This document shows, piece after piece, positions 41,483 through 63,195 of a stretch of DNA of 64,000 nucleotides (its first letter is position 1; every line of letters starts with the position of its first letter). The notes under the pieces are model-generated. The model searched no databases, was not told the origin of the DNA, and was given only the letters and a program-made list of their open reading frames with translations. The stretch spans positions 1,923,615 to 1,987,614 of the forward strand of contig OY763426.1 in the NCBI GenBank assembly GCA_963667495.1. The letters run 5' to 3'. The DNA comes from Candidatus Binatia bacterium (lineage in GTDB: Bacteria; Desulfobacterota; Binatia; Bin18). The position numbers were made by a program, and so were the translations under genes.

Positions 41483-41705
41483 GAACCCACCCCGGCCCTT
41501 CGGGTCACCCCTCCCAAGAGGGGAGCTTTTTTATCCCCTCCAGGGAGGGGTGAGTTTGCCCCGATCCGGCAGCCCCCCTTCTGACGAGCGCTGATTCCTG
41601 GGAATGGGCATCACACGTCAGAGGGGGGAGGGAAAATCTGCTCCCTCTCCCCTGGAGGGAGAGCCCGTCCTGAGCCCAGTCGAAGGGGGCTGGGGTGAGG
41701 GGGAA
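41483..41705. repeat. composite copy of the GC-rich repeat family (R core plus CCGTCCTGAGCCCAGTCGAAGG module)
   Basis: GAACCCACCCCGGCCCTTCGGGTCACCCCTCCCAAGAGGGGAG...ATCCCCTCCAGGGAGGGGTG, then CCCGTCCTGAGCCCAGTCGAAGGGGGCTGGGGTGAGGGGGAA. Confidence 0.8.
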
Positions 41706-41743
41706 CAAGCAAACTGAACCACGACCGAAAATCAGGCCGTGGA

Positions 41744-42349
41744 CTAATGCCTGACCCGGAGTTTCCTGAACCAGTACTGCAACCCCTGGAGCATATCCTG
41801 CTGAGCTCCGACGGAATCGGTGGCGTGGGAAATATAGACCCCCGCTTCGAGCAGCGCCCCCCACAACAGGCGGGCGAGCGCTTGGTACGGGACCTCTTCT
41901 TCGAGAAAGCCTTCCGCTTTCAACTGTTTGAAGCCAGCCGTGATGAAATTCAGGGCCGGCACGTTTGCATGCCAGATTTCCGGGCCTAACACAGCCGGGC
42001 CGTCAGTGTAAATGATGCGCTGCGCGTCCTTTTCGGACATGGCTTCAACAACTATGGTGAGGCCGGTCTCGATAAGCCGCTGCCAAGTGTCCCCATCACT
42101 CTCCTGTATCCGCCCCAGCAGCGCCTGCGTCCTTGACTGTCGAAACCGCTCAAAAACGGCCCGGAATAAATCCTCCTTATCCCGAAAATGATAATAGAGC
42201 GCCCCTCTGGTCACCTTGGCGCGTTCCACAATTTCGTTCGTGGATGTGCCGGCATACCCTTGCGTGGCAAAGAGTTCATGGGCCACGTCCAGCAATGCTA
42301 TTCTGGTCTTCTCATATTGTTCCGCTTTCGTGAGCCCTGGCTCTGCCAT
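41744..42349 (-). CDS. TetR/AcrR-family transcriptional regulator
   Basis: N-terminal HTH (GYAGTSTNEIVERAKVTRGALYYHFRDKEDLF). Confidence 0.88.
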   Translation of the reverse strand: MAEPGLTKAEQYEKTRIALLDVAHELFATQGYAGTSTNEIVERAKVTRGALYYHFRDKEDLFRAVFERFRQSRTQALLGRIQESDGDTWQRLIETGLTIVVEAMSEKDAQRIIYTDGPAVLGPEIWHANVPALNFITAGFKQLKAEGFLEEEVPYQALARLLWGALLEAGVYISHATDSVGAQQDMLQGLQYWFRKLRVRH

Positions 42350-42390
42350 GCACCCTACCCCCCTGATTTCCTTTAAGTATTGATGGGTGA

Positions 42391-42530
42391 GTCATGATAC
42401 ATATCACCTGTATTATTGAATTGCAAATGTACAGGCGATATGTATCTTTCACTCAAGGGTTGACATACAGACAACGTATATGTATTATCAGCCCAACATA
42501 CAGACGATATATATTCTAAGGTTGTCAGTC
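42391..42530. promoter_or_regulatory. array of four related ATACAKAY...ATATGTAT sites in the tetR / tadD-like divergent intergenic region (candidate operator)
   Basis: ATACATATCACCTGTAT and its near-inverted copy TACAGGCGATATGTAT. ATACAGACAACGTATATGTAT and ATACAGACGATATATAT follow downstream. Confidence 0.4.
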
Positions 42531-42658
42531 GAAAGGCGTTGAGGGACGCCTGAAATATGACTCACTGTAAAGACACCTGGATAACGTTTGGCAGGGATTC
42601 TCAGGGCAGCGCAACGCATTGAACCGAGTCCACTCGGACTTGACATCCACTATGAAAC

Positions 42659-43390
42659 ATGAAGACCTTCTCTTCTCTTCTCTTCTCTTCTCTTCTCTTC
42701 TCTTCTCTGAGCGCGTGTAGCAGCGTATCAGTCGGAAGAGGAGTGTTGGACCCGGCCCAACAGCAGATGTTGGACCGCGGCCTGGAAGTGTCGTCCGTGG
42801 CCGTAAAAACCGGCCAGCCCGTTGCGGCCGGGCGGATGTACGAACGCCTGTCCACCTCCTTCCCGAGCGCCCCGGAACCGAAACTCGGACTGGCCTATAT
42901 GGCCCTGCACGCCGGTGACTTTGCGACCGCCGACGCCCTGTTCACCGAAGCCAGCAGCCTGGCAACGTTGCCGGCCCTCAAGGCCGAGGCCCTGCTCGGC
43001 GCCGGGCGGGCCAGTCTGGGACGCGAAGACCTCGCCACGGCCAGGACCCATTTTCTTGCCGCCGCCGAACTGGCCACCGGCACCTCGGTCGCGCCCTGGG
43101 TCATGAACGGTCTGGCGGTCGTGGCCGCGCTTGAGGGCGATTATCCCTTGGCCGAACAGCATTACAAAGCAGCGCTGGCCGTGGCGGCGCATCCGCTCAT
43201 CACCGCCAACCTGCTGCGGACGCTCGTCGAATCGGGCCGCCTCGACGCAGCCCGCCAACTCCACGCCAGCCGTGACGACACCTACTGGGCGGAAAGCGAC
43301 CGGGTCGAGTTGCCACAACTGCTCAAAAACAACGACAGAACCCACCCCGGCCCTACGGGCCACCCCTCCGAGGAGGGGAGCAGATTATAA
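42659..43390 (+). CDS. TPR-like lipoprotein, TadD-like candidate
   Basis: Lipobox LSAC. The signal peptide carries FSSLL repeats. TPR-like helical content. The last 17 codons and the stop come from a repeat-family copy (THPGPTGHPSEEGSRL*). Confidence 0.55.
   Translation: MKTFSSLLFSSLLFSSLSACSSVSVGRGVLDPAQQQMLDRGLEVSSVAVKTGQPVAAGRMYERLSTSFPSAPEPKLGLAYMALHAGDFATADALFTEASSLATLPALKAEALLGAGRASLGREDLATARTHFLAAAELATGTSVAPWVMNGLAVVAALEGDYPLAEQHYKAALAVAAHPLITANLLRTLVESGRLDAARQLHASRDDTYWAESDRVELPQLLKNNDRTHPGPTGHPSEEGSRL
42668..42710 (+). repeat. pentanucleotide (TTCTC/CTTCT)n simple-sequence tract inside the signal-peptide coding region
   Basis: At least 6 tandem pentamers are visible. The ORF-track translation (FSSLL-FSSLL-FSSL, and REEKR x3 on the opposite strand) implies about 8 units. 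Confidence 0.85.
43338..43385. repeat. half-copy of repeat family R forming the 3' end of the TadD-like gene
   Basis: GAACCCACCCCGGCCCTACGGGCCACCCCTCCGAGGAGGGGAG. Confidence 0.8.
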
Positions 43391-43416
43391 AGAGGGGATT
43401 AAGGGGGGAGAAGAAA

Positions 43417-44676
43417 GTGAAGATGAATACCAGGCAAAAGACCCCCAAGCCGGACCGGCCGCTCCACCGCTCACTGTGGGCACTCAGCCTCGGTCTGGCG
43501 TTCAGCCTCGGGTTTGCTGAACACGGAGTGACGGCAGAGCCGATCAAGCCGATCCCGGTCATGACCGAGGTGAACGAAGCCAAAGCCGCACTCGGCAGGC
43601 GGCTGTTCCACGACACGAGACTCTCCAAGAACGATACAGTCTCCTGCGCCACCTGCCACGACCTGAGTGCCGGCGGGGATGACGGACAGGTCGTATCCAT
43701 CGGTATTGAGGGCCGGCCCGGGCTGGTGAACGCGCCCACCGTGTTCAACTCCGGTTACAATTTCAAACAGTTCTGGGACGGCCGGGCGCACACCCTCGAA
43801 GAGCAGGTTGACGGCCCGTTACAGAGTCGCATCGAGATGGAAAGCATCTGGCCCGATGTCGTAACCAAACTCTTCCAGGACGAGGACTATCCCCGCCTGT
43901 TCCAGCAGGTGTATCCCAACGACGCTCAGGCGATTTCACGCCAGAACATCAAAGACGCCATCGCCGAGTTCCAGCGTTCCCTCATCACCCCCAACAGTCG
44001 CTTTGACCAGTGGCTCAGGGGCAATGTCGAAGCCCTCAACGAACAGGAGAGAGAAGGCTACGCCTTGTTCAAGCGCTACGGCTGCGTGTCCTGTCATCAG
44101 GGGGCAAATGTGGGCGGCAATATGTTTCAAGTCTTCGGCGTGATTAACGACTATTTCAGAAAGCGGGGCAATATCACCGACGCCGACCTCGGACGCTTCA
44201 ACGTCACCGGGAACGAGGTCGACAAACACGCCTTCAAAGTTCCGAGCCTGCGCATGGCCGCGCATACGGCCCCCTATCTGCACGACGGCAGCGCAGCGAC
44301 CTTACGCGACGCGGTCGATGCCATGTTCGAGTTCCAACTCGGACGGGAAGCGCCGGATGAGGACAAGGAGGCCATCGTGGCCTTCATCAAGACTCTGGCC
44401 GGAGAATTCCAAGAAAATAATGACGGCTTTGACTTCAGGCAGGGTCCGACCTCTGCTGAGTTCCGGGAAAGCCTCAACGGCAACCTTGGGCAGCGTGCGG
44501 CACCGACCGGAGTCCAGGAAATCTCTACGACAGGTGCCGCTCAGGAGAGTCCTCCTGCGGACATCGCCGAAACAATTTCCCAAAACGGCTCAGCCCGCCC
44601 GCTGCGCACGGGCCGAACCGCCAGAACAAAATCCAAAGTAGGACGGGCAACGGGCCCGGTCCGTTCGGGACGATAA
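43417..44676 (+). CDS. di-haem cytochrome c peroxidase (CCP/MauG family), secreted
   Basis: Two CxxCH haem motifs (CATCH, CVSCH) and a signal peptide. Low-complexity C-terminal tail. Confidence 0.85.
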   Translation: MKMNTRQKTPKPDRPLHRSLWALSLGLAFSLGFAEHGVTAEPIKPIPVMTEVNEAKAALGRRLFHDTRLSKNDTVSCATCHDLSAGGDDGQVVSIGIEGRPGLVNAPTVFNSGYNFKQFWDGRAHTLEEQVDGPLQSRIEMESIWPDVVTKLFQDEDYPRLFQQVYPNDAQAISRQNIKDAIAEFQRSLITPNSRFDQWLRGNVEALNEQEREGYALFKRYGCVSCHQGANVGGNMFQVFGVINDYFRKRGNITDADLGRFNVTGNEVDKHAFKVPSLRMAAHTAPYLHDGSAATLRDAVDAMFEFQLGREAPDEDKEAIVAFIKTLAGEFQENNDGFDFRQGPTSAEFRESLNGNLGQRAAPTGVQEISTTGAAQESPPADIAETISQNGSARPLRTGRTARTKSKVGRATGPVRSGR

Positions 44677-44707
44677 CCCACACTGAAGCCACCGAGGAAT
44701 CAGCGCC

Positions 44708-46510
44708 ATGAAATCCAAATCAATCACTATCGGCATCTTCCTGTCAGTCCTCTTTGTCGTAACCGCCGCCGGATTCTACTGGATGGCCGCGCAGGCCAAA
44801 GCCGGCGAGCATCATCTCGCCATTGCCACCGTACAACGGATTCAGCAAATCGAATCGCAGTGGAGTGTCGAAGTGGCCCGCGTCCGCTCCGACCCCTTTG
44901 CCGACTTCGACACCCTGACCCAATTCATCCCCCGGATGGAGCGCCTCAAGGATACCCTGGCGAGCGCTATCCGAAACACGTCCAGCCTGCCGAGCCGCTT
45001 GGTCAACACCACCAATGCCTACCTGAGCGCCGTTACCGCCAAGGAGGAACGCATTGAGCGCTTCAAGACCGGCTACGCCGTGCTGCGCAATTCCGTGCGC
45101 TATCTGCCCCTGGCCGCCACCAATGTGATGCAGCAGATGCAGACCAATGGGGCCAACCCGGCTTTCATCAAGAATGTGGCGACCGTCACCGACGATATCA
45201 ACACCTATCTGGCGAGCCCGGCCCCCCCGGAAAAGGAGCGCCTGACGCGGGTGCTGTCCGAACTGGGCAACAACATTGCGACCCGCCATCCCCCGCTGGT
45301 CAATACGGCCATGAACTTTGTCGCCCACGGCCAGGTCCTGCTCGAAAAGCAGGGGCCGACCGAAGAGATATTCCAGGAGGCGACCTCCGATCAAATCAGC
45401 GAGCTGGGCGGCACCATCATCAAAGGGTTGGAGGATGAAATAGACCGGACCGAGGCCCTGGCCACCTGGTACGAGCGCGGCATCATCGGCACGGGCATCG
45501 CCCTGTGGCTGATGTGGTTGACCATCGCGGTCAAAGCGCCCAGGGGCAAAGACCAACGGAACAGAGGCAGCACAGCAGTCCTGCCGCAAAATCCGTTACT
45601 GCTGAGAGAACAGGCCGGTCCCAGACCGGACGAAGGACTCGACCGCCTGACTGCGGACCTCATGAAAACCGGACCGATCAACACCGAAGAGAGCGACTCA
45701 ACCGCTGCCGCAGAGTTCACGGCCTACCAGGTCGGGGTGGATATCGCCGCCGAGCATTTGATGACCCTGGTCGAGCGTATCAAAAGCAGCACCTCAATGC
45801 TGGCCGACGTATCGGACCAGCCGGCTCCCAATGGGGTGGAGGGGGCCGACCTGCTGAGCCAGCCGACTGACGATGAGACGGAAAGTGCCGACCTGCCAGC
45901 CCCGCCGGCGGACAATGGCATGGCGTCTGCCGCCGACCCGGCGGACAAGGACTGGGGCATGACGGCCGCGGTCGTCGCCAACATCCACACGCAGACCGAC
46001 GACATCATGGAGTTGGCGAAGCGCCTGCCCGCGCTGGCACCCAAACGCGACGGGGGCTACACTCAGCTTGACCTCAACGACTCCCTCGACGAAATCGCCG
46101 ACACCATCCAGGCCACGAGTCGGTCGCTGGTCGTCAAGGAACTGAACCCCCTCCCGACCATACCGGCCTCGGAACACGAGGTTTCTCTGATGTTCACCAG
46201 TATCATGGAGAACGCCGCGTTAGCGATTCAGGAACGGGGCCAGAAAAAGGGTATCATTCGGGTGGAGACCAAACAGCAGGCCGACCACATTGAGGTCACC
46301 ATCACGGACAATGGAACTGGCATCCGGCCCGAGCGGCACAAGAAGGTTTTCAGCCCGTTCTACACCACCCGAGACGGGGCCTTGGGCATGGGCCTCACCA
46401 CGGCCCAATACCTGGCGGAGAAATACAACGGCGCCATCCGAATGAACTCCATCCCAAACCGCGGCACGGCCATCCAGGTGTCCCTGCCCATCCACACGCA
46501 TGCGCAATAA
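44708..46510 (+). CDS. membrane sensor histidine kinase-like protein (periplasmic sensor domain + HATPase_c)
   Basis: N-terminal TM, a ~240-aa extracytoplasmic domain, a second TM, then a C-terminal GHKL ATPase (N box ENAALA, G1 DNGTGI, G2 GMGL). No clear HisKA H-box recognised. Confidence 0.7.
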   Translation: MKSKSITIGIFLSVLFVVTAAGFYWMAAQAKAGEHHLAIATVQRIQQIESQWSVEVARVRSDPFADFDTLTQFIPRMERLKDTLASAIRNTSSLPSRLVNTTNAYLSAVTAKEERIERFKTGYAVLRNSVRYLPLAATNVMQQMQTNGANPAFIKNVATVTDDINTYLASPAPPEKERLTRVLSELGNNIATRHPPLVNTAMNFVAHGQVLLEKQGPTEEIFQEATSDQISELGGTIIKGLEDEIDRTEALATWYERGIIGTGIALWLMWLTIAVKAPRGKDQRNRGSTAVLPQNPLLLREQAGPRPDEGLDRLTADLMKTGPINTEESDSTAAAEFTAYQVGVDIAAEHLMTLVERIKSSTSMLADVSDQPAPNGVEGADLLSQPTDDETESADLPAPPADNGMASAADPADKDWGMTAAVVANIHTQTDDIMELAKRLPALAPKRDGGYTQLDLNDSLDEIADTIQATSRSLVVKELNPLPTIPASEHEVSLMFTSIMENAALAIQERGQKKGIIRVETKQQADHIEVTITDNGTGIRPERHKKVFSPFYTTRDGALGMGLTTAQYLAEKYNGAIRMNSIPNRGTAIQVSLPIHTHAQ

Positions 46511-47288
46511 GGGAGTCGCACAGGAGGGATCACGTATGTTTCCTATCGATCGGGCCTCAGTTTTGTTGCGTGCTTTTCCCAGGAATCGCCGCTCGCGGTC
46601 CGGGGCCAACCCACCCCGGCCCGTTGGGCCACCCCTCCAAGGAGGGGATTTTTTCCTATCCCCTCCTTGGAGGGGTGCCGCGTCAGCGGCGGGGTGGGTT
46701 CCCCCCGCCCGCCAGACAACACTATCTGCATCACACCTCACCCATTTCACCCGGTTTCTCACCTGCCGGCGCGGCGCCGTGGCCCTGGAGAGCGCCCTTG
46801 CCGTCATCCCCCTCATCATCTGTCTGGTCGGGGTGTTCGAGATAGTCCAGAGCGTCTTTGTCCGCGACCTGATCCAGCGCGCCGCCTACCAGACCGCTTA
46901 TGAAAATGTGCTCTACGACGGCGCGGCCAGTAACGCCGCTGAGTTGCTCACGCGCTACCGTAATGCGCTCAACGGCGAGGTTGGCGGGCTTCTCAGCTTT
47001 GCCCTGGACGGTGAAGGCGCGTGTAGTGAGACGCCGCCTGCGGGCAGCCCGGCGGTGGACTTCTGCCTGAAGGTCTGCATCACCGCTTACGACAGTCCCT
47101 CCGCTATACCGTCCGATGGAGAGAATTCCTGCGACGACGCCAAGCTCGGTGGCGATGCCGGCGACATAGTGGTGGTCACCGTGGTGGCAACGTCCCAGTC
47201 CGCGCTGAGCGAACTCCAGCAGGGTTTCTTTGGTGACAATGGCATGATGGTCACCGCGGTCAGGCGCAACGAGCTGGAGGCAGCATAG
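46500..47288 (+). CDS. TadE-like pseudopilin family protein; N-terminal leader read through a repeat copy; start uncertain (likely ATG ~46537 after GGAGGG)
   Basis: RRGAVALESALAVIPLIICLVGVFE TadE N-terminal motif immediately after the repeat-encoded ANPPRPVGPPLQGGD...GWVPPARQ. Confidence 0.6.
   Translation: MRNKGVAQEGSRMFPIDRASVLLRAFPRNRRSRSGANPPRPVGPPLQGGDFFLSPPWRGAASAAGWVPPARQTTLSASHLTHFTRFLTCRRGAVALESALAVIPLIICLVGVFEIVQSVFVRDLIQRAAYQTAYENVLYDGAASNAAELLTRYRNALNGEVGGLLSFALDGEGACSETPPAGSPAVDFCLKVCITAYDSPSAIPSDGENSCDDAKLGGDAGDIVVVTVVATSQSALSELQQGFFGDNGMMVTAVRRNELEAA
46607..46702. repeat. full copy of repeat family R inside the 5' part of the TadE-like ORF
   Basis: CAACCCACCCCGGCCCGTTGGGCCACCCCTCCAAGGAGGGGAT..ATCCCCTCCTTGGAGGGGTGCCGCGTCAGCGGCGGGGTGGGTTCC. 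Confidence 0.85.
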
Positions 47289-47289
47289 C

Positions 47290-48135
47290 ATGGCCGGACG
47301 ACGACAAGCCCTTCCCGGAGCGGGTTCCCCCGGGTCGCCGGGGGCGAAACCCACCCCGGCCTCCTTCGACGGGACTCAGGACCGGCTTCGCCAAGCTCAG
47401 GACCACCCCTCCCGAGAGGGGATAAAGGAACCCACCCCGGCCCTTCGGGCCACCCCTCCGAGGAGGGGAGCAGAATATCCCCTCCTCGGAGGGAAAGAGG
47501 AAACGTATCCTCCAACAGACCGGAGATGCTGGACACGTTTCCTCTTTGTGCCGCGTCAGCGGCGGGGTGGGTTCCCCCGGGCGGTAGGGTGGGTTTTCCG
47601 CGCCGCCCGGCAATTCCTGCGCAATACGCGCGGCGCGGCCGCGCTGGAGAGCGCGATTGGGGCCGTTGTCCTCGTCACCACATCAACCCTGGCCTTCGAT
47701 CTGTACACGCGGGCAACCACAACCGCGACCGGCCTGAACGTCGCGGTCACGGTCGCCGACTATGTGAGTCTGGAAAAGGAGCCGAAGGCATCCGAGATGA
47801 CGGCCCTGGCCACATTCCTGCACGGCGAATTCTTCCCCCAGGCCGATGCCGCCTTCGTCGTCACCGCCGTCCAGGGCGCAACCGGTGAGAACCAGAAGTG
47901 GACGTGGAGCAAACAGATTCTCGTCGATGCAGACGCCATCACTGACCCCGACCTGGCCACGTGCAGCCAGGTTGCCGGAGCGGATAACAAAGCAACACTG
48001 CCCACCGCCCTCGCGCTGAAAGCCAACGAAATCGTGGTCGTGGCCGAGGTCTGCGTCAAACACGCGGGCGGGGTATCCTACTATCATCACATCCTGCCCC
48101 CCCGCTCCGAGAATGCGCCAGTCCTTCAGTCCTGA
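47290..48135 (+). CDS. second TadE/TadF-like pseudopilin family protein; 5' region composed of repeat copies; start uncertain
   Basis: ARQFLRNTRGAAALESAIGAVVLVTTSTLAFDLY TadE-like motif after ~100 repeat-derived codons. Confidence 0.55.
   Translation: MAGRRQALPGAGSPGSPGAKPTPASFDGTQDRLRQAQDHPSREGIKEPTPALRATPPRRGAEYPLLGGKEETYPPTDRRCWTRFLFVPRQRRGGFPRAVGWVFRAARQFLRNTRGAAALESAIGAVVLVTTSTLAFDLYTRATTTATGLNVAVTVADYVSLEKEPKASEMTALATFLHGEFFPQADAAFVVTAVQGATGENQKWTWSKQILVDADAITDPDLATCSQVAGADNKATLPTALALKANEIVVVAEVCVKHAGGVSYYHHILPPRSENAPVLQS
47346..47600. repeat. composite repeat block (two R cores plus GAAAGAGGAAACGTATCCTCC..GGACACGTTTCCTCTTTG module)
   Basis: Modules as named, ending CCGCGTCAGCGGCGGGGTGGGTTCC. 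Confidence 0.85.
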
Positions 48136-48144
48136 GATTCTGCC

Positions 48145-54503: not shown

Positions 54504-54755
54504 TTATTGGCGGGGTGAGGCTTGGGCGCTGCGCTCCAAAAGCTCACGGAGGCCCGCACTCTGCTCACGGAGACTCGCACTCTGCTCACGGAGGCCCGCA
54601 CCCATGTCCTCAAGGGCTTTGGCCTGCTGGATCATCAAGACGGTACTGGCCTCCCGGCTCGTATTATTTTTTCGCATCTCCCAAATGCCCCAGGCAATAA
54701 TGCCGAGTTGTGCCATATAATAGCTGATGGATGCCCATTCAAATGTCGTCATATT
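54504..54755 (-). CDS. small single-TM hypothetical protein with LREQSA(S/G) x3 repeat
   Basis: The internal Met of the listed ORF. The rest of the listed ORF is repeat-derived. It contains a 21-nt x3 tandem repeat. Confidence 0.35.
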   Translation of the reverse strand, partial: NMTTFEWASISYYMAQLGIIAWGIWEMRKNNTSREASTVLMIQQAKALEDMGAGLREQSASLREQSAGLRELLERSAQASPRQ

Positions 54756-54835
54756 CTTTCCCTTGTCAACATGTGTTGACTGCTCCTGAAAGTAGGGAAC
54801 GCCATACGCCCTGTCAACGGCGCAACGTGACACTA

Positions 54836-55030
54836 TATCCCCTCTTGGGAGGGAAAGAGGAAACGTATCCTCCAAACAGCCCTCAATGCGGGACACGTTT
54901 CCTCTTTGTGCCGCGTCAGCGGCGGGGTGGGTTTGCCCGGTCGGACAGTGTATACGGGAACCCACCCCGGCCTGCGGCCACCCCTCCGAGGAGGGGATAA
55001 GACTAAAGCTCCCCTCTTGGGAGGGGATGA
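54836..55030. repeat. composite repeat block (GAAAGAGGAAACGT module plus R core)
   Basis: Modules as named. Confidence 0.85.
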
Positions 55031-55056
55031 AGAGGTAATGCGGAACACTGAGGAGA

Positions 55057-55380
55057 ATGCCCATGCCCACCCCACCCCACCGCTTTCTGCCCGTACTGCT
55101 GGCCGTCGCGCTGACCTGTGCCGGTTGTAGCGTGGTGCCGCTGTCGCTGTACCAGACCCTGCCGTCCACCCGCATGGCGCTGGCCACGCTCGAAGAGACG
55201 CAGCGCAGCCTGGACGACACGCGAGCGGATTATGCGGATAGCCTTGAGGCGGCCCCGGTCGAACGACCGGTCGCGGCCTATGGAGCGACTCATGGCGCGT
55301 ATCAGCGCTGGGTAGCGGACGAGGTGCGTGAGCTGCCGGACGTGTCGCAAACCATCGCTATCGGAGGGGGCGACACCTAG
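55057..55380 (+). CDS. lipoprotein of unknown function in Tad locus (possible CpaD/RcpB-position analog)
   Basis: Lipobox LTCAGC. 107 aa. Confidence 0.4.
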   Translation: MPMPTPPHRFLPVLLAVALTCAGCSVVPLSLYQTLPSTRMALATLEETQRSLDDTRADYADSLEAAPVERPVAAYGATHGAYQRWVADEVRELPDVSQTIAIGGGDT

Positions 55381-55413
55381 AGCCCGAGGCGGTCTGACTG
55401 AGGAAAGCAGGTA

Positions 55414-55678
55414 TATGACAGAGTACGAAACAGCCAACCTCGCCCTCCAAACAGCCAGCCTCACGCTTCAGCGGTATACCGTCATCGCGCAAGTGCTGAT
55501 TGGCGCGGTACAATGTATGCTGATCGCCGGTGGGTTGTGGCTCATGAAAAAGGCGGCCAGCACCCGGGACGCGCAACACCAGGAGGCGAGAGACCAGCAT
55601 CGAGAAACCATGGTCGTGCTCCAACAGCAGGGCGAAGCCTTGCGTACCCTGATTGAGCGCACGGCCCCACCGGCATGA
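55414..55678 (+). CDS. small single-TM hypothetical protein, architecture similar to the 54504-54755 gene
   Basis: ATG after GAGGAAAG. TM helix VIAQVLIGAVQCMLIAGGLWLM. Q-rich helical tail. Confidence 0.4.
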
Positions 55679-55748
55679 ATTCCTGTCACTACAAAAAGTC
55701 AATCCGACACGGAGCAATTGGAACGCCGAGAGATTGAGAGCGCCGTCC

Positions 55749-56894
55749 ATGGAAGCGACCGATACCAGCAGTATCCTGGCTTTTGCGGCTGACACGGAAA
55801 CCGAACGGGTGCTGAAAGGCGCGCTGGCCGGGCGTGGGGCCCAGGTGCGGCGCGGGGACATGACGGCAGCCATCAAAACGCTGAGTTCGGCGGCCTCACC
55901 CCGCTTGCTGCTCGTTGACCTGGACGGCACCGAGTTTCCGGTCGGACGGATTCACGAGTTGGCCGCGGTGTGCGAGTTCGGCACCGCGGTCGTGGCCGTC
56001 AGCTCGAATGACACGGCCCGCTTTACCCGCGAACTGCTGGCCTGCGGGGTCAGCGATTATCTGCCCAAACCTCTGACGGTCAGCGATATTCACGATGCCG
56101 TGACCACCGCACTCAGAGACGAGGATGAGGCGGAGGCCCGTTTGTACGCCGGACGGGTGATTGCGTTTGCCGGCTGTGGTGGCAGCGGGGCCACGACTCT
56201 GGCCGCGCTGACGGCCCTGACCGCGGCGACTCAGGGCAGCTATGTGTCGGTCCTGGACCTGGAGCGGACCGCCGGGGCGCTGCCGCTGATGCTGGATGTG
56301 GAGCCGGCGGTGGGGTTTGACGAGTTGCTTGACCTGGCGGCCAAACCCGACCCGGACCCGGACATGATTGATGGGGTGCGGACGCGGGTGACGCCGCGTG
56401 TCTCTGTGTACGGCTATCGGGCGGGCGACAGCCTGCCTCCCCCGCCCACGGCTGAGGCCGTCCTCTGGTTGATGGAGCAGTTGGCTAACCGTTCCCACCT
56501 GGTGATCGTGGACGGCCTGACGGATACCGACCTGCTGTTTTCCGTGTTGCCAACTGCCAACGAACGGGTGCTGGTCTTTGAGCCGACTCTGGTCAGTCTG
56601 AACCGGGTGATTCGCCGCCTGGTGCTGCTCGGCAATGACAACCCGAGCCTGCTGGTCGAAAACCATACGCGAGCGCCCAAGGGGGCCTTGTCCGCGGAGG
56701 ATATTCGTTACACCCTGGCTGGGCGCGAGCCGGACGCGACCATGCCCTTTGAGCCCGGCCTGCCGGCGGCCACCAACTACGGTCTGCCGGAACGGGAGTT
56801 CGGCAAAAAATACCGCAAAGCCCTGGAAGCGCTGACCGTCCGGCTGATCCGACCGGCCACTTCGCTGGCCGACGCGGTGCAGAACGACTATTAA
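55749..56894 (+). CDS. cpaE: Flp pilus assembly protein CpaE/TadZ (receiver-like domain + MinD/ParA-like ATPase)
   Basis: N-terminal pseudo-receiver (LLLVDLDG), then a deviant Walker A region (FAGCGGSGATTLAA). Confidence 0.7.
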   Translation: MEATDTSSILAFAADTETERVLKGALAGRGAQVRRGDMTAAIKTLSSAASPRLLLVDLDGTEFPVGRIHELAAVCEFGTAVVAVSSNDTARFTRELLACGVSDYLPKPLTVSDIHDAVTTALRDEDEAEARLYAGRVIAFAGCGGSGATTLAALTALTAATQGSYVSVLDLERTAGALPLMLDVEPAVGFDELLDLAAKPDPDPDMIDGVRTRVTPRVSVYGYRAGDSLPPPPTAEAVLWLMEQLANRSHLVIVDGLTDTDLLFSVLPTANERVLVFEPTLVSLNRVIRRLVLLGNDNPSLLVENHTRAPKGALSAEDIRYTLAGREPDATMPFEPGLPAATNYGLPEREFGKKYRKALEALTVRLIRPATSLADAVQNDY

Positions 56895-56916: not shown

Positions 56917-58365
56917 ATGCCACGCACTGCTTTTGGCCGTCGCCCGAAACCTTCCGCCCCCCAGCCCGCCTCCAGCCCGCCCCCAGCCGGCGAACCGGCT
57001 GGGGGGCAGCCTGCTCCGGGGGACGCGGCGCCCCAGGAACAGCCCCCGCGAGCGGCGGAGGCCGGTGCCGCCGAGCCGGGGCGCCGGCTGGCCGCGGACC
57101 GGCTGATTGCCGATATGGCGGCACAAATCCACCCGACGGTGGTGCAGTCGCTCGATATGTCCAAGGCGGCCGACCTGAGCCGGAACGAACTGGCGGTGCA
57201 AATCCAGGCTTTTCTGGACAGGCAAGAGTCGGTTGCCTCGGACCTGACGCCGCTGGACCGCCGGCGCGTGGTGCAGCGACTGGTGGACGATATCAAGGGC
57301 CTTGGTCCGCTGGAGCCGCTGTTCAACGACCCGGCTGTCTCCGACATTCTGGTCAATGGGCTCAAATCGGTCTATGTCGAACGTAAGGGCAAGCTGGAGC
57401 AGGCGGAGATCCGCTTCCGCGACGAGCAGCACTTGCTGAATATCGCCCAGCGGATTGCCAGTTGGGTCGGGCGGCGCATTGACGAGGCCAGCCCGATGGT
57501 GGACGCGCGCCTGCCGGACGGCAGCCGGGTGAATATCGTCATTCCGCCGCTGGCGATTGACGGTGCGGCATTCTCCATCCGGCGCTTTGTGGCCCGTGGC
57601 ATCAGCCTGGCCGACCTGGCCGAGCGCAACGCCTTTACCCCGGCCATGGGCCGGCTGCTCCAGATTTGTGCCAAGGCCCGGCTGAATATCCTGATTTCGG
57701 GCGGGACGGGCGCCGGGAAAACGACCTTTCTGAACGCCCTGTCGCGCGAGATCAGCAATGCCGAGCGGCTGGTGACCATCGAGGATTCCGCGGAGTTGCA
57801 GTTGCAGCAGCCGCATGTGGTCCGGCTGGAAACGCGCACCAAGAGTGTGGAGGGGACGGGCGAGGTGAGCATCCGCGATCTGCTGATTAACGCCCTGCGG
57901 ATGCGACCCGACCGGATTATCGTGGGTGAGGTGCGCGGCGGCGAGGCCAACGAGATGCTGCAAGCCATGAATACCGGTCATCCGGGCTCGATGTGTACGC
58001 TCCACGCCAATAATCCGCGTGATGCGCTGGGCCGGCTCGAAAACATGCTGATGCAGACCTCTGGTGAGATACCGCTGTCGGCCATGCGCCGCCAGATTGT
58101 GTCGGCTGTTGATCTGGTCGTGCAGTTGTCCCGGCTGCGTTCCGGGCATCGCTGTGTGACCAGTATTACGGATGTGGTCGGGATGGAGGGCGATATTATT
58201 ACCACTGAGGAGATGTGGCGCCGTCTGCCGGGCGAGGCGCATGAGTTTGAGCAGAGCGGTCGTCAACCGTCCTGGATGGCCGCGGTGGACGCCGCGGGGT
58301 TGCGCGCCGAGTTGCTGGAGGTGCTCCAGATGGGGAACGCGAGAAACGTGGAGGCCGCGGCATGA
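56917..58365 (+). CDS. cpaF: Flp pilus assembly ATPase CpaF/TadA
   Basis: Walker A GGTGAGKTT, Walker B, and His/Asp boxes of the T2SS/T4SS secretion ATPase family. Ala/Pro-rich N-terminus. Confidence 0.9.
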   Translation: MPRTAFGRRPKPSAPQPASSPPPAGEPAGGQPAPGDAAPQEQPPRAAEAGAAEPGRRLAADRLIADMAAQIHPTVVQSLDMSKAADLSRNELAVQIQAFLDRQESVASDLTPLDRRRVVQRLVDDIKGLGPLEPLFNDPAVSDILVNGLKSVYVERKGKLEQAEIRFRDEQHLLNIAQRIASWVGRRIDEASPMVDARLPDGSRVNIVIPPLAIDGAAFSIRRFVARGISLADLAERNAFTPAMGRLLQICAKARLNILISGGTGAGKTTFLNALSREISNAERLVTIEDSAELQLQQPHVVRLETRTKSVEGTGEVSIRDLLINALRMRPDRIIVGEVRGGEANEMLQAMNTGHPGSMCTLHANNPRDALGRLENMLMQTSGEIPLSAMRRQIVSAVDLVVQLSRLRSGHRCVTSITDVVGMEGDIITTEEMWRRLPGEAHEFEQSGRQPSWMAAVDAAGLRAELLEVLQMGNARNVEAAA

Positions 58366-59396: not shown

Positions 59397-59489
59397 GTGA
59401 TGGCTTATTTTGGGGAACAATATACTTGACGCACTCAGGAAATAAAAGGGCACAACCTACTTAGGACAGCCAGGAAGGAGTATAGCCCA

Positions 59490-59906
59490 ATGAACAAAGT
59501 TTGGACGATGCTTGCGGCGGTGAGTTTCATGCTGGCAGCGTTTGCTGGCTGCGACGATGCCAAGATAGCGTCCAGGAACTTATCGAAAGCAGCGGAAAAT
59601 TTTGAGATCGACCGGCGTATCATCTTTTACAACGGTATCACTGACACCTACATGCTCACCATATATGGGCGCTGCGCTATTGACGATCAAAGAAAACAAC
59701 TGGAAGTGGTGTGCAAGGTCAGCCAGGATGCCTACAAAAAGCACTTCCTGGGGCTGTCCGACAATGTGACCTATTTCGCGGAACAGTTGGAAACGGCGAA
59801 TGTGAGCGCCTATCACTACCGTGTCACCTTTAAGCCGCAGACGATTTTGCCGGATATCGACTTCCGGGGAAGCGGCACGGAATTACTCGAAAACAAGTCG
59901 GAATAA
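59490..59906 (+). CDS. lipoprotein of unknown function (cargo of AT-rich insertion)
   Basis: Lipobox LAAFAGC. AT-richer composition than its surroundings. Confidence 0.5.
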   Translation: MNKVWTMLAAVSFMLAAFAGCDDAKIASRNLSKAAENFEIDRRIIFYNGITDTYMLTIYGRCAIDDQRKQLEVVCKVSQDAYKKHFLGLSDNVTYFAEQLETANVSAYHYRVTFKPQTILPDIDFRGSGTELLENKSE

Positions 59907-59957
59907 TCAGTTTGAATGGATGTCCTAAGTATGTTGTTCCCTTATTTTGTACCCCCG

Positions 59958-60176
59958 CCCTCTCCCTCCAGGAGACTTGACCTCCCCTCCTTGAAGGGAA
60001 AGAGGAAACGTATCCTCCAACAGGCTGGAGATGCTGGACACGTTTCCTCTTTGTGCCGCGTAGCGGCGGGGTGGGTTTCGTCGTCTCGCTGCACCCCTGC
60101 GCCCGAGCAGCACCCACCCCGGCCCTTCAACGAGGCTCAGGACAGGCTCTTCGGGCCACCCCTCCGAGGAGGGGAT
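59958..60176. repeat. composite repeat block at the left side of the AT-rich insertion
   Basis: GAAAGAGGAAACGTATCCTCC..GGACACGTTTCCTCTTTGTGCCGCGTAGCGGCGGGGTGGGTTTCG...CACCCACCCCGGCCCTTCAACGAGGCTCAGGACAGG..GGGCCACCCCTCCGAGGAGGGGAT. Confidence 0.85.
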
Positions 60177-60357
60177 TATATACAGTGTTACCCACCCTTA
60201 GCATGGATGCAGTGTTCACGCATTCACCGTTTTTACTGCTTTTGACTTCTGAATTTTTGTTGTTCCGTGGACTTGACAGCGTAATATACAGATATATACT
60301 CGGGCCTGACAGGGCAGCATTCTGCTTTCTTGTTCCTTGGAAGGGAGACTCGTATGG

Positions 60358-60521
60358 CAATCCAAAAAAAGGCGAATCATAAGCGCACCCCTGCGTCTAA
60401 TAAGGGTGGGCGTCCTGCTCGGCCTATGCCTGAGTTGATTCCTGATACGCCTGAGAATATCGCCCGTGCTTCGATGATGGGGCCGCCGAAGAAGAAGTGG
60501 CAGTATGAACAATCACAATAA
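60358..60521 (+). CDS. small basic hypothetical protein
   Basis: ATG after GAAGGGAG. Lys/Arg/Pro-rich 54 aa. Confidence 0.3.
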
Positions 60522-60526
60522 CAATC

Positions 60527-60838
60527 ATGCTAGGCTCAGAAGAACTTCTGAAGTGGGGCATTCCATTTTTTGCGGTGATAATTGCTCTTATTGGTACGGT
60601 ATGGAGGATCAGGGTCGATTATCGACGTGAGATACGTGAGGCCGATGAGGCGGCGGAAAAACGCCGAAACGAACGTATGGATGCTATCGAGAACCGACTC
60701 AATGAGCGTCTAAAGGAAATACAGGATGGGCTTCTGGCTTGGAACGAGAAAGTCCATGACCTTGAAATAGATTTGGCTCAAACAATAGGGCGGCTTGAGG
60801 GACGACAAGAGGCCGAAACTCCGAGAACGCCTAGATAG
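60527..60838 (+). CDS. small membrane-anchored coiled-coil hypothetical protein
   Basis: N-terminal TM (IPFFAVIIALIGTVW), then a heptad-rich helix. Confidence 0.4.
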   Translation: MLGSEELLKWGIPFFAVIIALIGTVWRIRVDYRREIREADEAAEKRRNERMDAIENRLNERLKEIQDGLLAWNEKVHDLEIDLAQTIGRLEGRQEAETPRTPR

Positions 60839-61039
60839 GAGTCATGTAGTATGGAACATCGAGAAACTAACCAAAATCTGATAAGCCCTGAAGTTGAACG
60901 GAGCTTCGACCGCATTCAATCTGCCATGTCTCTTTCTGATAAGCGGTTAGGCAGTATTGAGCGTTTAGCGAAAGAACTGGAGTCTCTTGTCGAAGAAAAG
61001 GAAAATACACAAGAACAAGAGTAATTGTACTTGGATAGA

Positions 61040-61067
61040 AAGCCCGGCTGACTGGCCGGGCTTTCTT
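61040..61067 (+). terminator. Rho-independent terminator-like hairpin
   Basis: GCCCGGC-TGACTG-GCCGGGC followed by TTTCTT. Lies after the small-ORF cluster. Confidence 0.6.
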
Positions 61068-61071
61068 GTGC

Positions 61072-61416
61072 CTACTTCCCAACCAAATCCTTGTACCGTA
61101 GCCGCTTATTCATCAGCCCCCGCGCCATGCACTCCATTTGGACAGCCGTATCAAGCGGGCGCTGGTTGTGACGGCCTGCAAACTCGTTGACATACCGGCC
61201 TAAGTGTTTCTCACTCATCTTGTGGTAGGTGCCGTAGTAGCCTCTCTTGGGCATACTCCAGAAGCTCTCAATGCCGTTCGTGTGGGCTTGTCCGTTGACG
61301 TACCCCCAACGCATAGCCGAAATTGTGACGAAGGGTATGGATCGGCTAGAGATGGGAATAAAAGATGATGCAAAATCAGAGATTGTTCGTCTGTCGCAGG
61401 GATTACCATATGTCAC
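61072..61416 (-). pseudogene. C-terminal fragment of an IS1595-family (ISXO2-like) transposase
   Basis: [38 protein letters not shown] matches the conserved C-terminal ISXO2-like transposase domain. No N-terminal part or inverted repeats. Confidence 0.65.
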
Positions 61417-61906
61417 TCATTTACTCGCGCTCTACGCCACCAAGGTGGCAATAAGCAGAAAGAGTATGGAGGTTGAAAGTGAAGACGTAAATAAGGGAAT
61501 GGAAAGAGCCCTCGAACAATGGCAGGAATCAATCAAGACAACATATTATCGCGCAACTAAGAGCCAACAACCAGGGAACATTTTCAAGGAAGTTATCCTA
61601 GCTTGTGCATTTGCCGAAAATGATGAGTTGGGGTATTTCTCTGCCGGAAATGTGCGAGAACCTTTACGTATTATCACCAGTCGAGAATACGATATTCCAA
61701 ACTTTGCGCGGCATCTGAAAGAATTTAGTGGGCAAGAGCGCGGAGGGCTTCTTTATCGAACAGGACAGAAACGCCAGATACGTTATCGTTTCAACAGCCC
61801 ATTGATGCGGCCATATATCGTCATGAAAGGGTTCGCGGATGGTTTGATTACTCAAGAGGTTTTTCACAGACTGCTACCTAATCAGCCAATGCGTATGGTT
61901 CCCTAA
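61247..61906 (+). pseudogene. truncated AAA+/ORC-like ATPase C-terminal fragment, overlapping the transposase remnant
   Basis: Helical lid and winged-helix-like C-terminal region ([16 protein letters not shown]...). No Walker A region. The 5' part overlaps the IS fragment on the opposite strand. Confidence 0.4.
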
Positions 61907-61949
61907 TATATCAAATATGAACTTGGCTTGGGTAAGATTGTATATAATT

Positions 61950-62075
61950 CCCTCTTGGGAGGCCCGTCCTGAGCCCAGCCGAAGGAGGTGCCGCGCCAGC
62001 GGCGGGGTGGGTTTGGCGGGCGGTCGTACCAGGACCCACCCCGGCCCTGCGGGCCACCCCTCCGAGGAGGGGAGA
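61950..62075. repeat. repeat block at the right side of the AT-rich insertion
   Basis: CCCGTCCTGAGCCCAGCCGAAGGAGGTGCCGCGCCAGCGGCGGGGTGGGTTTGG...GACCCACCCCGGCCCTGCGGGCCACCCCTCCGAGGAGGGGAG. Confidence 0.85.
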
Positions 62076-62101
62076 GTAAGAAGTAGAGGAGAACAGCAGT
62101 C

Positions 62102-63064
62102 ATGTTCTGGATTGTCGTGATCACAACGGTGGCTTGTCTGGCAGTTGTCGGTGTGCTGGTTTTTCTTAGCAGCCGCCAGGCCCAGGTGCTGGACCGCCGG
62201 CTCGTCAAGGTGCGGGCCTGGGCCGTGGCCGCCCATGGCGACCAGCAGAAACAGCGCAAACAGCACGGCGAGGGGGGTTCCCTGCGTCTGGTGTCGTCCG
62301 CGCTGCTGGATGTGGCGTCCCGGCTGGTGCCGGTCGGGGCGGCCGAGCGAGCCAAGCTGAAAGACACGCTCACGAAGGCGGGGTTTCATCGGCCCGACGC
62401 CTTGTCGATATTCATGACGGTCAAGCTGGTCGTGATGCTGTCCAGCGGCATTCTGCTGAGCTGGCAGACCTCGGCGGGACAGTGGCTGGGGGAATATACC
62501 TCAACGCCGGCCATTCTGCTGGCGGGTCTGGCCGGGGCGGTGATCGGGGGAATTATGCCTGAGATGGGCCTGGACCGCCTCGGCACCCGCCGGCAGAGCC
62601 GGATGGCCGCGGCGCTGCCGGATGCTCTGGACCTGATGACGCTCTGCCTTGAATCCGGTTTGACTTTTGAGCGCACCCTGTCTCGGGTGGTGCGGGAGTT
62701 GGGGTCCATGGCACCCGACCTGGCCCGTGAGTTTGCGCTGTCCGAGGTGGAACTGCGGCTCGGCACTGAGCGTAAGCATGTGTTGCACGACCTGCACGTT
62801 CGGACCGGGGTGGAGGGGTTGCGCGACCTGTCCTCGACCATTACGCAGGGCGAGCGCTATGGCACGCCGCTGGCCCAGTCCATGCGGAATATCGCTCTCA
62901 GTGAACGGCAGCAGCGCGCGGCGCGGATTGAGGTCCAGGTCGCGCGGCTGCCGGTGTTGATGAGCATGCCCATGCTGCTGCTGGTGACGCCGGGAACCCT
63001 GCTGCTGGTGGCGGGACCGGCCTTTGTCTCGACCATGGAGATGCTGGGCAACCTGGGCCAGTGA
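62102..63064 (+). CDS. tadC: Flp pilus assembly inner-membrane protein TadC
   Basis: GspF-like domain with N-terminal TM and C-terminal TM pair. Follows tadB across the insertion. Confidence 0.7.
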   Translation: MFWIVVITTVACLAVVGVLVFLSSRQAQVLDRRLVKVRAWAVAAHGDQQKQRKQHGEGGSLRLVSSALLDVASRLVPVGAAERAKLKDTLTKAGFHRPDALSIFMTVKLVVMLSSGILLSWQTSAGQWLGEYTSTPAILLAGLAGAVIGGIMPEMGLDRLGTRRQSRMAAALPDALDLMTLCLESGLTFERTLSRVVRELGSMAPDLAREFALSEVELRLGTERKHVLHDLHVRTGVEGLRDLSSTITQGERYGTPLAQSMRNIALSERQQRAARIEVQVARLPVLMSMPMLLLVTPGTLLLVAGPAFVSTMEMLGNLGQ

Positions 63065-63098
63065 GGGGCGCTGCGTATTGCGTTCTCTGGGGGCTTGG

Positions 63099-63195
63099 GG
63101 AACCCACCCCGCCGCTACGCGGCACCCCTCCCGAGAGGGGATTTTTTGCTCCCCTCCTTGGAGGGGTGGCCCGCAGGGCCGGGGTGGGTTCCCCG
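63099..63195. repeat. full copy of repeat family R after tadC
   Basis: GGGAACCCACCCCGCCGCTACGCGGCACCCCTCCCGAGAGGGGAT...ATCCCCTCCTTGGAGGGGTGGCCCGCAGGGCCGGGGTGGGTTCC. Confidence 0.85.

Follow-up and report, generated by a model that had tools for sequence, protein, structure and literature searches.

BoxC repeats were described in the 1990s, followed by PIT (Hoyne et al. 2000) and by the TMECO motif of Holder et al. (2015, PMC4666352), which has 23 copies in Escherichia coli MG1655 and 3610 in 262 proteobacterial genomes, while related G/C-rich motifs are abundant in cyanobacteria. The E. coli motif was demonstrated to form a triplex in vitro by circular dichroism and nuclear magnetic resonance, its second loop has 3 nt (TTA or CCG), its inverted pairs always join two loop types, and its sites were described as always intergenic (PMC4666352). 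As well, loci bearing TMECO show raised instability, no promoter or terminator activity of the motif was seen in earlier work, and neither a function nor an adjacent mobility gene has ever been found (PMC4666352). In about 30 years, BoxC/PIT/TMECO repeats have been assigned neither an origin nor a function, nor a mechanism by which they spread. Here, we describe repeats in a 64,000-nucleotide stretch of the genome of a Candidatus Binatia bacterium (contig OY763426.1, positions 1,923,615 to 1,987,614; the whole stretch is called the window), which are a richer version of the BoxC/PIT/TMECO design and lie at very high density in a Tad/Flp pilus locus. They form a Binatia lineage within a family of short, G/C-rich half-elements that crosses phyla, and they are tightly associated, in physical terms, with genes for a DUF559 nuclease. 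One such gene is embedded among the repeats of the window; a preliminary description of this DNA passed over it, and it is the most informative feature of the locus. The DUF559 nuclease is the likely partner that spreads these non-autonomous repeats, a role which we infer with moderate confidence. It provides a concrete candidate partner for the whole class, supported by gene-proximal modules across phyla, two-sided co-variation of the modules and a copy-number contrast in E. coli.

The modular family of nested palindromes proposed in the preliminary description is real. Module A (RAACCCACCCCGGCC) has 20 matches in the window with at most one mismatch, compared with 0.03 expected; nearly all copies are on the coding strand, 19 matches lie within 41483-63191 and the remaining one is at 12681. 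Module B (CCACCCCTCCNNGGAGGGGAT) has 27 matches with at most two mismatches (0 expected), module C (GAAAGAGGAAACGT...ACGTTTCCTCTTT) has four copies (at 47493, 53861, 54853, and 59998), and ten module D arms are present. A self-BLAST of the window gave 22 repeat islands with a total of 1631 nt, 21 of which lie beyond 41.4 kb and up to 63.2 kb. On the G-rich strand, a half-element consists of CCCCTCC, a loop of 2-4 nt, GGAGGGG, a variable hairpin (H1/H3 or module D) and GGGGTGG, and two half-elements in inverted orientation form a ~90-nt palindrome with the order A-H1-B-spacer-B'-H3-A'. Module C hairpins insert into other elements, and elements also occur in tandem with ~22-nt spacers.

In complete elements, a 10-bp outer stem (AACCCACCCC/GGGGTGGGTT) closes a three-way junction, or a four-way junction with module C, and the nested hairpins expected earlier fold very stably (-73 to -106 kcal/mol, z-scores from -8 to -12). 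The covariance model that had been suggested for the modules was built from an alignment of 40 complete elements, picked for a GGCC-type H1 (model R1). It recovers six complete elements of ~90 nt in the window (at 12682, 46608, 48182, 50697, 53599, and 63101) and ~13 partial or composite ones, with one match alone outside 41.4-63.2 kb. Two copies had been placed before the last 22 kb; the one at 12681 is a complete element, whereas the one at 20216-20295 is module D alone. In the alignment, H3 (mostly GCCGC or GCCGG) varies and differs from the GGCC-type H1 in nearly all elements, a few having GGCC on both sides. Its compensatory changes affect 4/4 pairs, and B' and A' of the right half are nearly invariant though they were outside the search pattern. 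The whole window gave 0 matches to Rfam 15 at gathering thresholds, which rules out a known RNA family for the repeats; at permissive E-values, the copies within 46400-48500 match generic microRNA-precursor hairpin models alone. Literature searches with the DNA motifs and the repeat-encoded peptides found nothing relevant.

Modules A and B are related as mirror as well as complement (GGAGGGG, then GGGGTGG), with A replaced by T, and a variant lineage carries GAGAGGGG followed by GGGGTGTG. About 20 half-elements of the window satisfy the mirror rule with 7/7 allowed triplets (CCCCTCC/GGAGGGG/GGGGTGG). Judged from its sequence, this layout is that of the purine-motif intrastrand triplex, as in BoxC/PIT/TMECO, and by analogy the Binatia variant would fold into a triplex as well. 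The strict TMECO pattern (CCCTCNCCC-N3-6-GGGNGAGGG-N3-GGGNGAGGG) had 0 regular-expression matches on both strands of the window, and the second loop there has 12-15 nt (H1 or H3), or 24 nt with module D; the family is therefore a variant of the BoxC/PIT/TMECO kind and not a strict sequence member. In most metagenomic DUF559 flanks, the second loop has 2-4 nt.

Similar to BoxC/PIT/TMECO, the Binatia repeats are G/C-rich and multi-copy, with a pyrimidine stem, a complementary purine stem and a mirror purine block. The two also share inverted pairs of two loop types (H1 and H3 here), loci that are unstable between relatives, presence in Proteobacteria, abundance in Cyanobacteria, and no transposase nearby. 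Unlike the 9-nt stems of TMECO (CCCTCNCCC/GGGNGAGGG), those of Binatia have 7 nt, the second loop is enlarged to a hairpin of 12-24 nt (H1, H3, or module D), and module C hairpins are nested in addition. Moreover, about 20 half-elements are packed into 22 kb here, compared with 23 copies in the whole MG1655 genome, and copies are located inside coding sequence (secretin, TadE1/TadE2/TadG, the tetratricopeptide repeat (TPR) protein and DUF559; MnmA and radical-SAM elsewhere). Holder et al. (2015, PMC4666352) do not mention an association with DUF559. Cyanobacterial small dispersed repeats and the pneumococcal BOX are alike in their tiny nested modules and mosaic make-up, but they are unrelated in sequence, are not described as having a mirror block and are not known to have an associated nuclease gene. 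Elhai et al. are said to have reported in 2008 that small dispersed repeats of cyanobacteria insert into hairpin loops.

The DUF559 gene sits at the peak of the repeat cluster, with a half-element 15 nt upstream and its tail encoded by another. The features around it are as follows:

53598-53701, + strand: complete element right after the secretin stop codon, module D replacing H1 (model, 89.5 bits)
53796-53941, + strand: complete element with module C nested in B' (self-BLAST, fold, model)
53967-54019, + strand: left half (A-D-B), upstream of the DUF559 start codon
54035-54454, + strand: DUF559 (Vsr-like PD-(D/E)XK) endonuclease gene, 139 aa (Pfam DUF559, PF04480, E = 5e-31)
54400-54492, + strand: left half A-D-B (the DUF559 tail) and a degenerate right end, GCTGC-GAAG-CAGC GGGGTAGGCG (model, 37.5 bits)
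54837-55035, + strand: right half with module C (54837-54935), 25-nt spacer, left half plus B' (54958-55035)

This free-standing gene encodes a nuclease domain and the repeat-encoded tail. In the closest relative (L025), the orthologous Tad locus is without DUF559, with 143 nt in place of the 932 nt of the window; the right end within 54400-54492 is homologous to L025, and the block 54837-55035 is missing from it (0 nt vs 230 nt in the window). The core profile matches PDB 3HRL (1e-22) and 3R3P, the catalytic domain of the homing endonuclease I-Bth0305I (9e-4), and the residues E67, D69, H73, and D82 are invariant among 20 diverse sequences. Compared with I-Bth0305I, one of the EDxHD/Vsr-like homing endonucleases (Taylor et al. 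2011, PMC3239194), DUF559 has a homologous nuclease domain and is likewise present or absent between orthologous loci. In contrast, it carries no NUMOD/helix-turn-helix DNA-binding region and lies outside any intron or intein, and its presumed target would be a multi-copy repeat instead of a conserved host gene (PMC3239194). The retrieved papers that mention DUF559 contain nothing on repeats or mobility. Directly downstream of the DUF559 unit, a small minus-strand open reading frame (ORF; 54504-54752) contains a 21-nt tandem repeat of 2.9 copies (54542-54601).

The association extends far beyond the window. Three other Binatia genomes have DUF559 inside a tandem array of complete elements (period ~114 nt) beside the type II secretion gene gspD, and a gene-less element (L203) has a spacer identical to the DUF559 5' untranslated region. 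A repeat-encoded (B) tail is present in 46 of 120 protein homologues from Binatia, cyanobacteria, and Bacteroidota, compared with one of 120 that has the motif in the protein core. For the flanks, tails were trimmed, a core alignment was built, and 80 metagenomic relatives were chosen by core protein motifs alone; at least one module lies beside the gene in 71 of these 80. Module A occurs no more than 160 nt after the gene in 61/75 loci and A' no more than 130 nt before it in 51/75, the usual layout being B'-A'-gene-A-B, which amounts to ~30-nt inverted arms around DUF559. In 43 of 44 loci, the two sides of the gene carry the same arm variant, and some arms match each other at 34/34 nt. At DUF559 loci, the variants of modules A and B co-vary too, just as the mirror rule predicts: 128 combine ACCCACCCC with CCCTCC, 37 combine ACACACCCC with CCCTCTC, and one is discordant (Fisher 3e-36). 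Four more distant DUF559 relatives (Picosynechococcus, Neisseria, Azospirillum, and Pseudanabaena) have flanking motifs that are specific to their lineage and share this architecture. DUF559 relatives are rare on mobile vectors (17 plasmid and two phage records). On the plasmid pPg_02 of Pseudanabaena galeata (L207), a 4866-nt coding sequence is annotated as DUF559, with the domain flanked by stop-free triplex-type repeats; this long ORF may be an annotation artefact from read-through across the repeats.

The flanks bear on a different explanation, that the repeats are ordinary elements of the repetitive extragenic palindromic (REP)/BIME type, or resemble miniature inverted-repeat transposable elements (MITEs), and are moved by an unseen transposase (RAYT-type Y1 or DDE), with DUF559 as a selfish gene or passenger in pre-existing arrays. 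We regard this as unlikely. DUF559, being homologous to a homing-endonuclease domain, could indeed parasitise arrays. However, in most metagenomic DUF559 loci the modules are found only at the gene and drop to chance level (0.15 per kb) beyond 400 nt, which indicates that the arms travel with DUF559 and are not its landing pad.

In E. coli, 168 nt separate the DUF559 gene ycjD from TMECO no. 9. In the K-12 sequence 1351204-1351760 (L205), a partial duplicate of the gene's 3' end stands downstream of ycjD, with BoxC/TMECO no. 9 behind it, and the ycjD stop codon lies in a degenerate C-stem (CACCCTCTCCCTGA). The gene is present as a single copy in 3378 of 5426 complete E. coli genomes. BoxC copies were counted in a sample of 60 evenly spaced genomes, 37 with ycjD and 23 without; the median was 19 (11-27) with ycjD and 8 (1-18) without it (Mann-Whitney p = 1.3e-9, in a comparison that ignores phylogeny). 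An unseen transposase with DUF559 as a passenger accords poorly with a copy number that tracks the presence of ycjD. Since E. coli has both ycjD and BoxC, the proposed role of DUF559 is testable in the laboratory.

The same count bears on a further proposal, in which DUF559 is a host repair nuclease that resolves triplexes or hairpins, and the motifs arise and multiply via replication slippage and gene conversion at fragile sites, their linkage to the gene coming about only by array growth in places that already have structures of this sort. The Vsr-like fold agrees with it, Vsr being a repair nuclease (PMC3239194), as do the chromosomal, low-copy and mostly conserved position of the Binatia gene, its rarity on plasmids and phages, and the instability of triplex-motif loci (PMC4666352). 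A pure anti-triplex role predicts fewer copies, though, and the E. coli genomes with ycjD hold more; nor does this proposal give a reason for matching inverted arms that are better conserved across phyla than the nuclease's own protein sequence. We consider it very improbable, the least probable of the explanations weighed here.

In species-representative genomes, the exact 26-base A+B pattern was found at more than 111 loci, which belong to Binatia, Kiritimatiellota, Verrucomicrobiota, Lentisphaerota, Armatimonadota, Bacteroidota, Acidobacteriota, and Cyanobacteria, and the overall element architecture is kept across the loci of these phyla. Comparison of orthologous Binatia loci revealed clean insertions of 133 nt (L008 vs L098), 73 nt (L076 vs L092; module C alone) and 230 nt (window vs L025), and no target-site duplication was present at the three pairs of filled and empty sites. 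The presence/absence polymorphism that had been proposed for examination among relatives was thereby observed, with copies polymorphic at the same Tad locus of the window and L025. Moreover, L045 and L069 have the element interior in opposite orientations, and at orthologous Binatia loci one palindromic family has been replaced by another. Insertions without duplication, an inverted interior and family replacement fit copying by recombination or repair, or a REP-like mechanism, and not DDE transposition.

These properties revive part of the comparison with REP/REPIN-RAYT systems (Bertels and Rainey 2011, PMC3116915; PMC3337134; PMC5581495). Short palindromic units occur as inverted doublets (six complete ones here) in mosaic clusters without target-site duplication, a low-copy chromosomal gene stands between inverted copies of the unit, and lineages without the gene (ycjD) have fewer copies. 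On the other hand, the flanked gene encodes a ~120-aa PD-(D/E)XK Vsr-like hydrolase and not a Y1/HUH tyrosine transposase, and the repeats have a triplex-type mirror block and a near-identical sequence across phyla. For the unseen transposase, the inverted palindromic pairs, mosaic clusters and insertion without duplication fit REP/REPIN (PMC3116915), and an IS4-like transposase lies beside repeats in four loci. Yet clustering of the neighbouring ORFs at 111 loci gave expanded host families (luciferase-like monooxygenases and short-chain dehydrogenases) and the IS4-like transposase, with no Y1 transposase among the recurrent repeat neighbours. The elements have no GTAG-type tetranucleotide, GTAG/CTAC being absent from the consensus of the 40 aligned elements, and the lack of target-site duplication at clean sites speaks against DDE-type MITEs. 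The REP/MITE-like label of the preliminary description fits the inverted doublets, but it overlooks BoxC/PIT/TMECO as the closest known kind.

IS4-like and IS1595-like genes occur near repeats, and the sole gene regularly bracketed by arms is DUF559. The IS4-like DDE transposase of ~400 aa stands beside repeats at L037 211-1419, L053 2525-3733, L089 4814-6022, and L084 3925-5067, and the products of L037 and L089 give identical Pfam results. By analogy with insertion sequences that target REPs, the IS4-like element may target the palindromes. Binatia also harbor unrelated insertion-polymorphic palindromic families (L004 4521-4628, L092 948-1168, L037 ~2850-2900, and L025 4976-5119), for instance GCCGTCATTCCCGCGAAAGCGGGAATGACGGC and GCGGGCTTCCAGCCCGC.

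As to the preferred explanation, the elements would be non-autonomous, with DUF559 as their likely partner, which sits in an array in Binatia and is bracketed by matching inverted half-elements elsewhere. The nuclease would nick or cut at the folded motif, and host repair or recombination would then copy the elements and the DUF559 gene into nearby or homologous sites. Such copying would produce insertions without target-site duplication, nested insertions, inverted interiors and dense arrays around the gene, in a relation like that of RAYT and REPIN or of a homing endonuclease gene and its target.

Several points weigh against a spreading role of DUF559. A PD-(D/E)XK hydrolase alone is incapable of strand transfer, and the copying step is hypothetical. 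Triplex formation has been established for the E. coli sequence alone, in which 3 nt, and not a 12-24-nt hairpin, separate the G-stem from the mirror block. The copies of the window span ~20 kb, compared with arrays within ~500 nt of DUF559 in the three other Binatia genomes, so that proximity to the gene leaves part of the distribution unexplained. In other phyla, repeat loci mostly have no DUF559 nearby (two genes in 834 kb), and E. coli genomes without ycjD keep 1-18 BoxC copies, in a count that takes no account of phylogeny. The layout also differs by lineage, being B'-A'-gene-A-B in most metagenomic loci and A-H1-B-gene-A-H1-B within the Binatia arrays, and no single element boundary can therefore be defined. 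A simple insertion sequence of a gene between terminal inverted repeats was dropped as the sole model, since the module order differs between Binatia and other lineages.

A broader proposal, which we put forward tentatively and hold for somewhat less than an even chance, is that DUF559, a very large family of small Vsr-like nucleases, serves across bacteria as the dedicated partner of BoxC/PIT/triplex-motif repeats. The nuclease of each lineage would recognise and cut its own folded motif of hairpin and mirror strand and, via host repair, would drive gain, loss and local amplification of the repeats and of its own gene. If true, it would constitute a nuclease-based counterpart of RAYT-REPIN and explain the origin of a repeat class unexplained since the 1990s. 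Stop-free half-elements would then be a recurrent source of new peptide segments, such as the N-termini of Tad pseudopilins, the secretin linker, and parts of MnmA and radical-SAM proteins.

The clustering of repeats in the Tad locus was compared as element ends per repeat-bearing 8-kb Binatia block. The block 48001-56000 of the window has 18 ends, compared with a median of 2 and a maximum of 10 in 70 other repeat-bearing Binatia blocks; the runner-up is L037 (10 ends), followed by the homologous Tad locus of L025, which has 6 ends and no DUF559. The five DUF559-bearing Binatia blocks have 10-18 ends per 8 kb each, and the other 69 blocks have 6 or fewer. The Tad locus is a genuine hotspot, as had been claimed, but it is not Tad-specific: the other dense arrays (10-15 ends per 8 kb) are located at DUF559 genes, three adjoining gspD and L037 lying beside an IS4-like transposase. 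Density is best predicted by the presence of DUF559 and not by pilus function. Within the window, element density is 4/kb within 1 kb of DUF559, 1.75/kb out to 8 kb, and ~0.05/kb in the first 41 kb. Part of the hotspot is old, with the TadG N-terminal region and one secretin-linker copy being common to relatives.

The Tad/Flp locus comprises a TPR lipoprotein gene, TadE1, TadE2, TadG, two Flp pilins, a secretin, a TadZ-like gene, an ATPase-like ORF, tadB, and tadC. Elements fill most of its intergenic gaps, and the DUF559 unit lies just downstream of the secretin. The remaining features of the window are as follows:

12681-12775, + strand: complete element A-H1-B-spacer-B'-H3-A' between convergent genes (model, 93 bits)
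20216-20295, no strand assigned: module D-type sequence alone, CCTTCGACTTCGCTC...GCTCAGGA (direct-repeat family D13, 76% identity to 48329-48387)
41483-41701, + strand: left half plus B' (41483-41556), then a B-like hairpin plus module D (41640-41701) (motifs, self-BLAST, model)
42659-43390, + strand: TPR lipoprotein gene, TadD-like (Pfam TPR families, translation)
46536-47288, + strand: TadE-like gene 1, TadE1 (Pfam TadE)
47290-48135, + strand: TadE-like gene 2, TadE2, with a composite repeat (47347-47577) in frame in its N-terminal region
48145-49986, + strand: TadG-like gene with a von Willebrand factor A domain (Pfam VWA; identical 613-aa product called in the source genome)
50043-50057, + strand: lone module A fragment downstream of tadG (motif match)
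50696-50801, + strand: complete element with an expanded spacer (model, 88 bits)
50863-53580, + strand: Tad secretin, CpaC/RcpA-like (Pfam Secretin and T2SS-T3SS_pil_N)
55653-56894: TadZ-like gene
56917-58365: candidate ATPase-like ORF
59978-60177, + strand: right half with module C (to 60077) and left half with module D (60110-60177)
61946-62074, + strand: right half with module D (to 62015) and left half (62032-62074)
63097-63193, - strand: complete element after tadC, at the operon end (model, 95.4 bits)

The element at 12681-12775 (fold -72.8 kcal/mol, z = -7.9) is the sole copy of the family in the first 41 kb and is kept in a relative that is 97% identical (L090); this metagenome-assembled Candidatus Binatia genome matches the window at 7041-15043 with 97.3% identity. 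The element at 50696-50801 is directly 3' of the two Flp pilin genes (50168-50380 and 50466-50657). At the operon end, the B hairpin of the element at 63097-63193 is followed by a T-run on the + strand, with a terminator-like site at 63125. Some copies, in which a T-run comes after the B hairpin, probably double as terminators or mRNA-stabilising hairpins. Intrinsic termination as a general role was rejected, since the pattern fits only three elements and its total number does not exceed that of shuffles.

Such positions raise the possibility that host selection keeps the repeats in the Tad operon as structural or regulatory modules that set pilus stoichiometry, be they terminators, hairpins for mRNA stabilisation or processing, or triplex signals for replication or recombination; the link to DUF559 would then be incidental. 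Their extremely stable folds (z = -8 to -12), the three copies that fit the intrinsic-terminator pattern (one at the operon end), the copy directly 3' of the pilin genes, the near-uniform coding-strand orientation and the N-terminal repeat kept in TadG orthologues of many Binatia are consistent with such a role. Nevertheless, copies are polymorphic between close relatives at the same Tad locus, the same elements lie by unrelated genes in other phyla and within mnmA and a radical-SAM gene there, and earlier work saw neither promoter nor terminator activity of the E. coli motif, as cited above (Holder et al. 2015, PMC4666352). Terminator-like sites in the window numbered 23 compared with 17 ± 3.6, an enrichment that is not significant, and host selection leaves the DUF559 association unexplained. 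We judge this explanation to be improbable, less probable than an unseen transposase though ahead of a repair nuclease.

Many copies lie inside coding sequence. The preliminary description had held the repeats to be stop-free in all six frames, which is true for the A-H1-B core of the half-elements, i.e., eight of the 22 islands, but not for whole elements; complete elements have one to three stops each, located in the spacers and the GTCA loop of H3. All 22 islands together have 24 stops, compared with 44.9 ± 4.8 in dinucleotide shuffles. Since the half-element core has no stop in any frame, copies can persist within coding sequence, and the tolerance proposed earlier was found in three copies of the secretin linker, three TadE/TadG N-terminal regions and two C-terminal tails, all in frame. 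Peptide readings listed earlier were recovered in real ORFs: the secretin contains NPPRPVGPPLQGGD, the TPR protein has THPGPTGHPSEEG at its end, and TadE2 carries EPTPALRATPPRRG. The repeats do generate spurious ORFs, as had been suggested, and N-terminal ORF extensions in addition.

In TadE1, a complete element (46602-46705; 98.7 bits) is in frame between the sole usable start, ATG 46536, and the RRG|AVALE motif. The repeat of TadE2 is composed of A-D-B, then A-H1-B-B' with module C, then H3-A' (fold -106.5 kcal/mol), and the in-frame repeat in the N-terminal region of TadG (48182-48390) is a reverse-oriented composite of a complete element with B and D modules. In all three genes, no in-frame ATG, GTG, or TTG occurs from the repeat to the conserved N-terminal motif (RRG|AxALE or PRFLRCRRAA). 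Their usable starts lie upstream of the repeats, and GGAGG precedes those of TadE1 (ATG 46536) and TadE2; the in-frame copies are presumably translated. Half-elements also provide the C-terminal tails of the TPR protein, the last codons of which (RTHPGPTGHPSEEGSRL) come from the half-element 43338-43383, and of DUF559 (last 17 codons).

Across Binatia, TadG orthologues have a conserved mature part and a hypervariable N-terminal region built from repeats. Some of these regions are short and repeat-free (e.g., MSPARFLRCRR), and many are one element that starts right behind the ATG (e.g., MQKGTHPGLRPPLQGGEQNTSPLGRGAAQAAGWVVHFIRCRR). Three copies are in frame in the Pro/Glu-rich linker of the secretin (51450-51587, 51696-51738, and 52041-52129), and only one of them is common to the L025 orthologue. 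The linker also contains a duplication with a spacing of 345 nt (51614-51748 vs 51959-52093, with 90% identity) and 2.3 copies of a 39-nt unit (52244-52334); it is growing through duplication in addition to repeat insertion. In other phyla (Verrucomicrobiota and Kiritimatiellota), complete elements are in frame within mnmA (L109) and a radical-SAM RlmN-like gene (L017), and also at L100. Eight viral contigs of IMG/VR have the exact repeat pattern, and half-elements are in frame in ORFs of L113, L114, L115, and L119. Repeat-derived coding sequence in metagenome-assembled genomes leads to false ORFs, fused ORFs and misplaced start codons in gene calling, and it bears on the evolution of disordered linkers and N-terminal extensions.

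Several further observations concern the surroundings of the Tad locus. The G+C content climbs from ~0.55 to ~0.62 at 44 kb; over ~44000-50000, it steps from ~0.55 to 0.61-0.66, and the cumulative GC-skew has its minimum near 49-50 kb, where repeat density rises. The step and the skew minimum could reflect a change of island origin or of strand bias. A low-GC insert of 2.7 kb (59397-62100; GC ~0.49) separates tadB from tadC and is bounded on both sides by repeats, those at 59978-60177 forming its left edge and those at 61946-62074 its right edge immediately upstream of tadC. Besides small ORFs, it contains a lipoprotein gene of the Phage_VG64 family (59490-59906) and, on the minus strand, a truncated IS1595-family transposase fragment (61072-61416). 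In the signal-peptide coding region of the TPR gene, a perfect pentanucleotide repeat, (CTTCT) x 8.4, is present at 42667-42708. With a unit that is not a multiple of three and a 5' position in a surface-structure gene, it resembles the classic layout of slipped-strand phase variation. An unrelated 59-nt unit with a hairpin (GGCCCGCGCAACGCGGGC) is repeated three times in tandem at 38767-38942, after the ORF 37111-38763. Finally, intergenic tandem 9-nt repeats (TTGGGTCCT / TTGGGTCTG) at 2403-2487 and 39292-39334 belong to a separate short-repeat family, and similar ones are found in other Binatia loci (L004 and L076).

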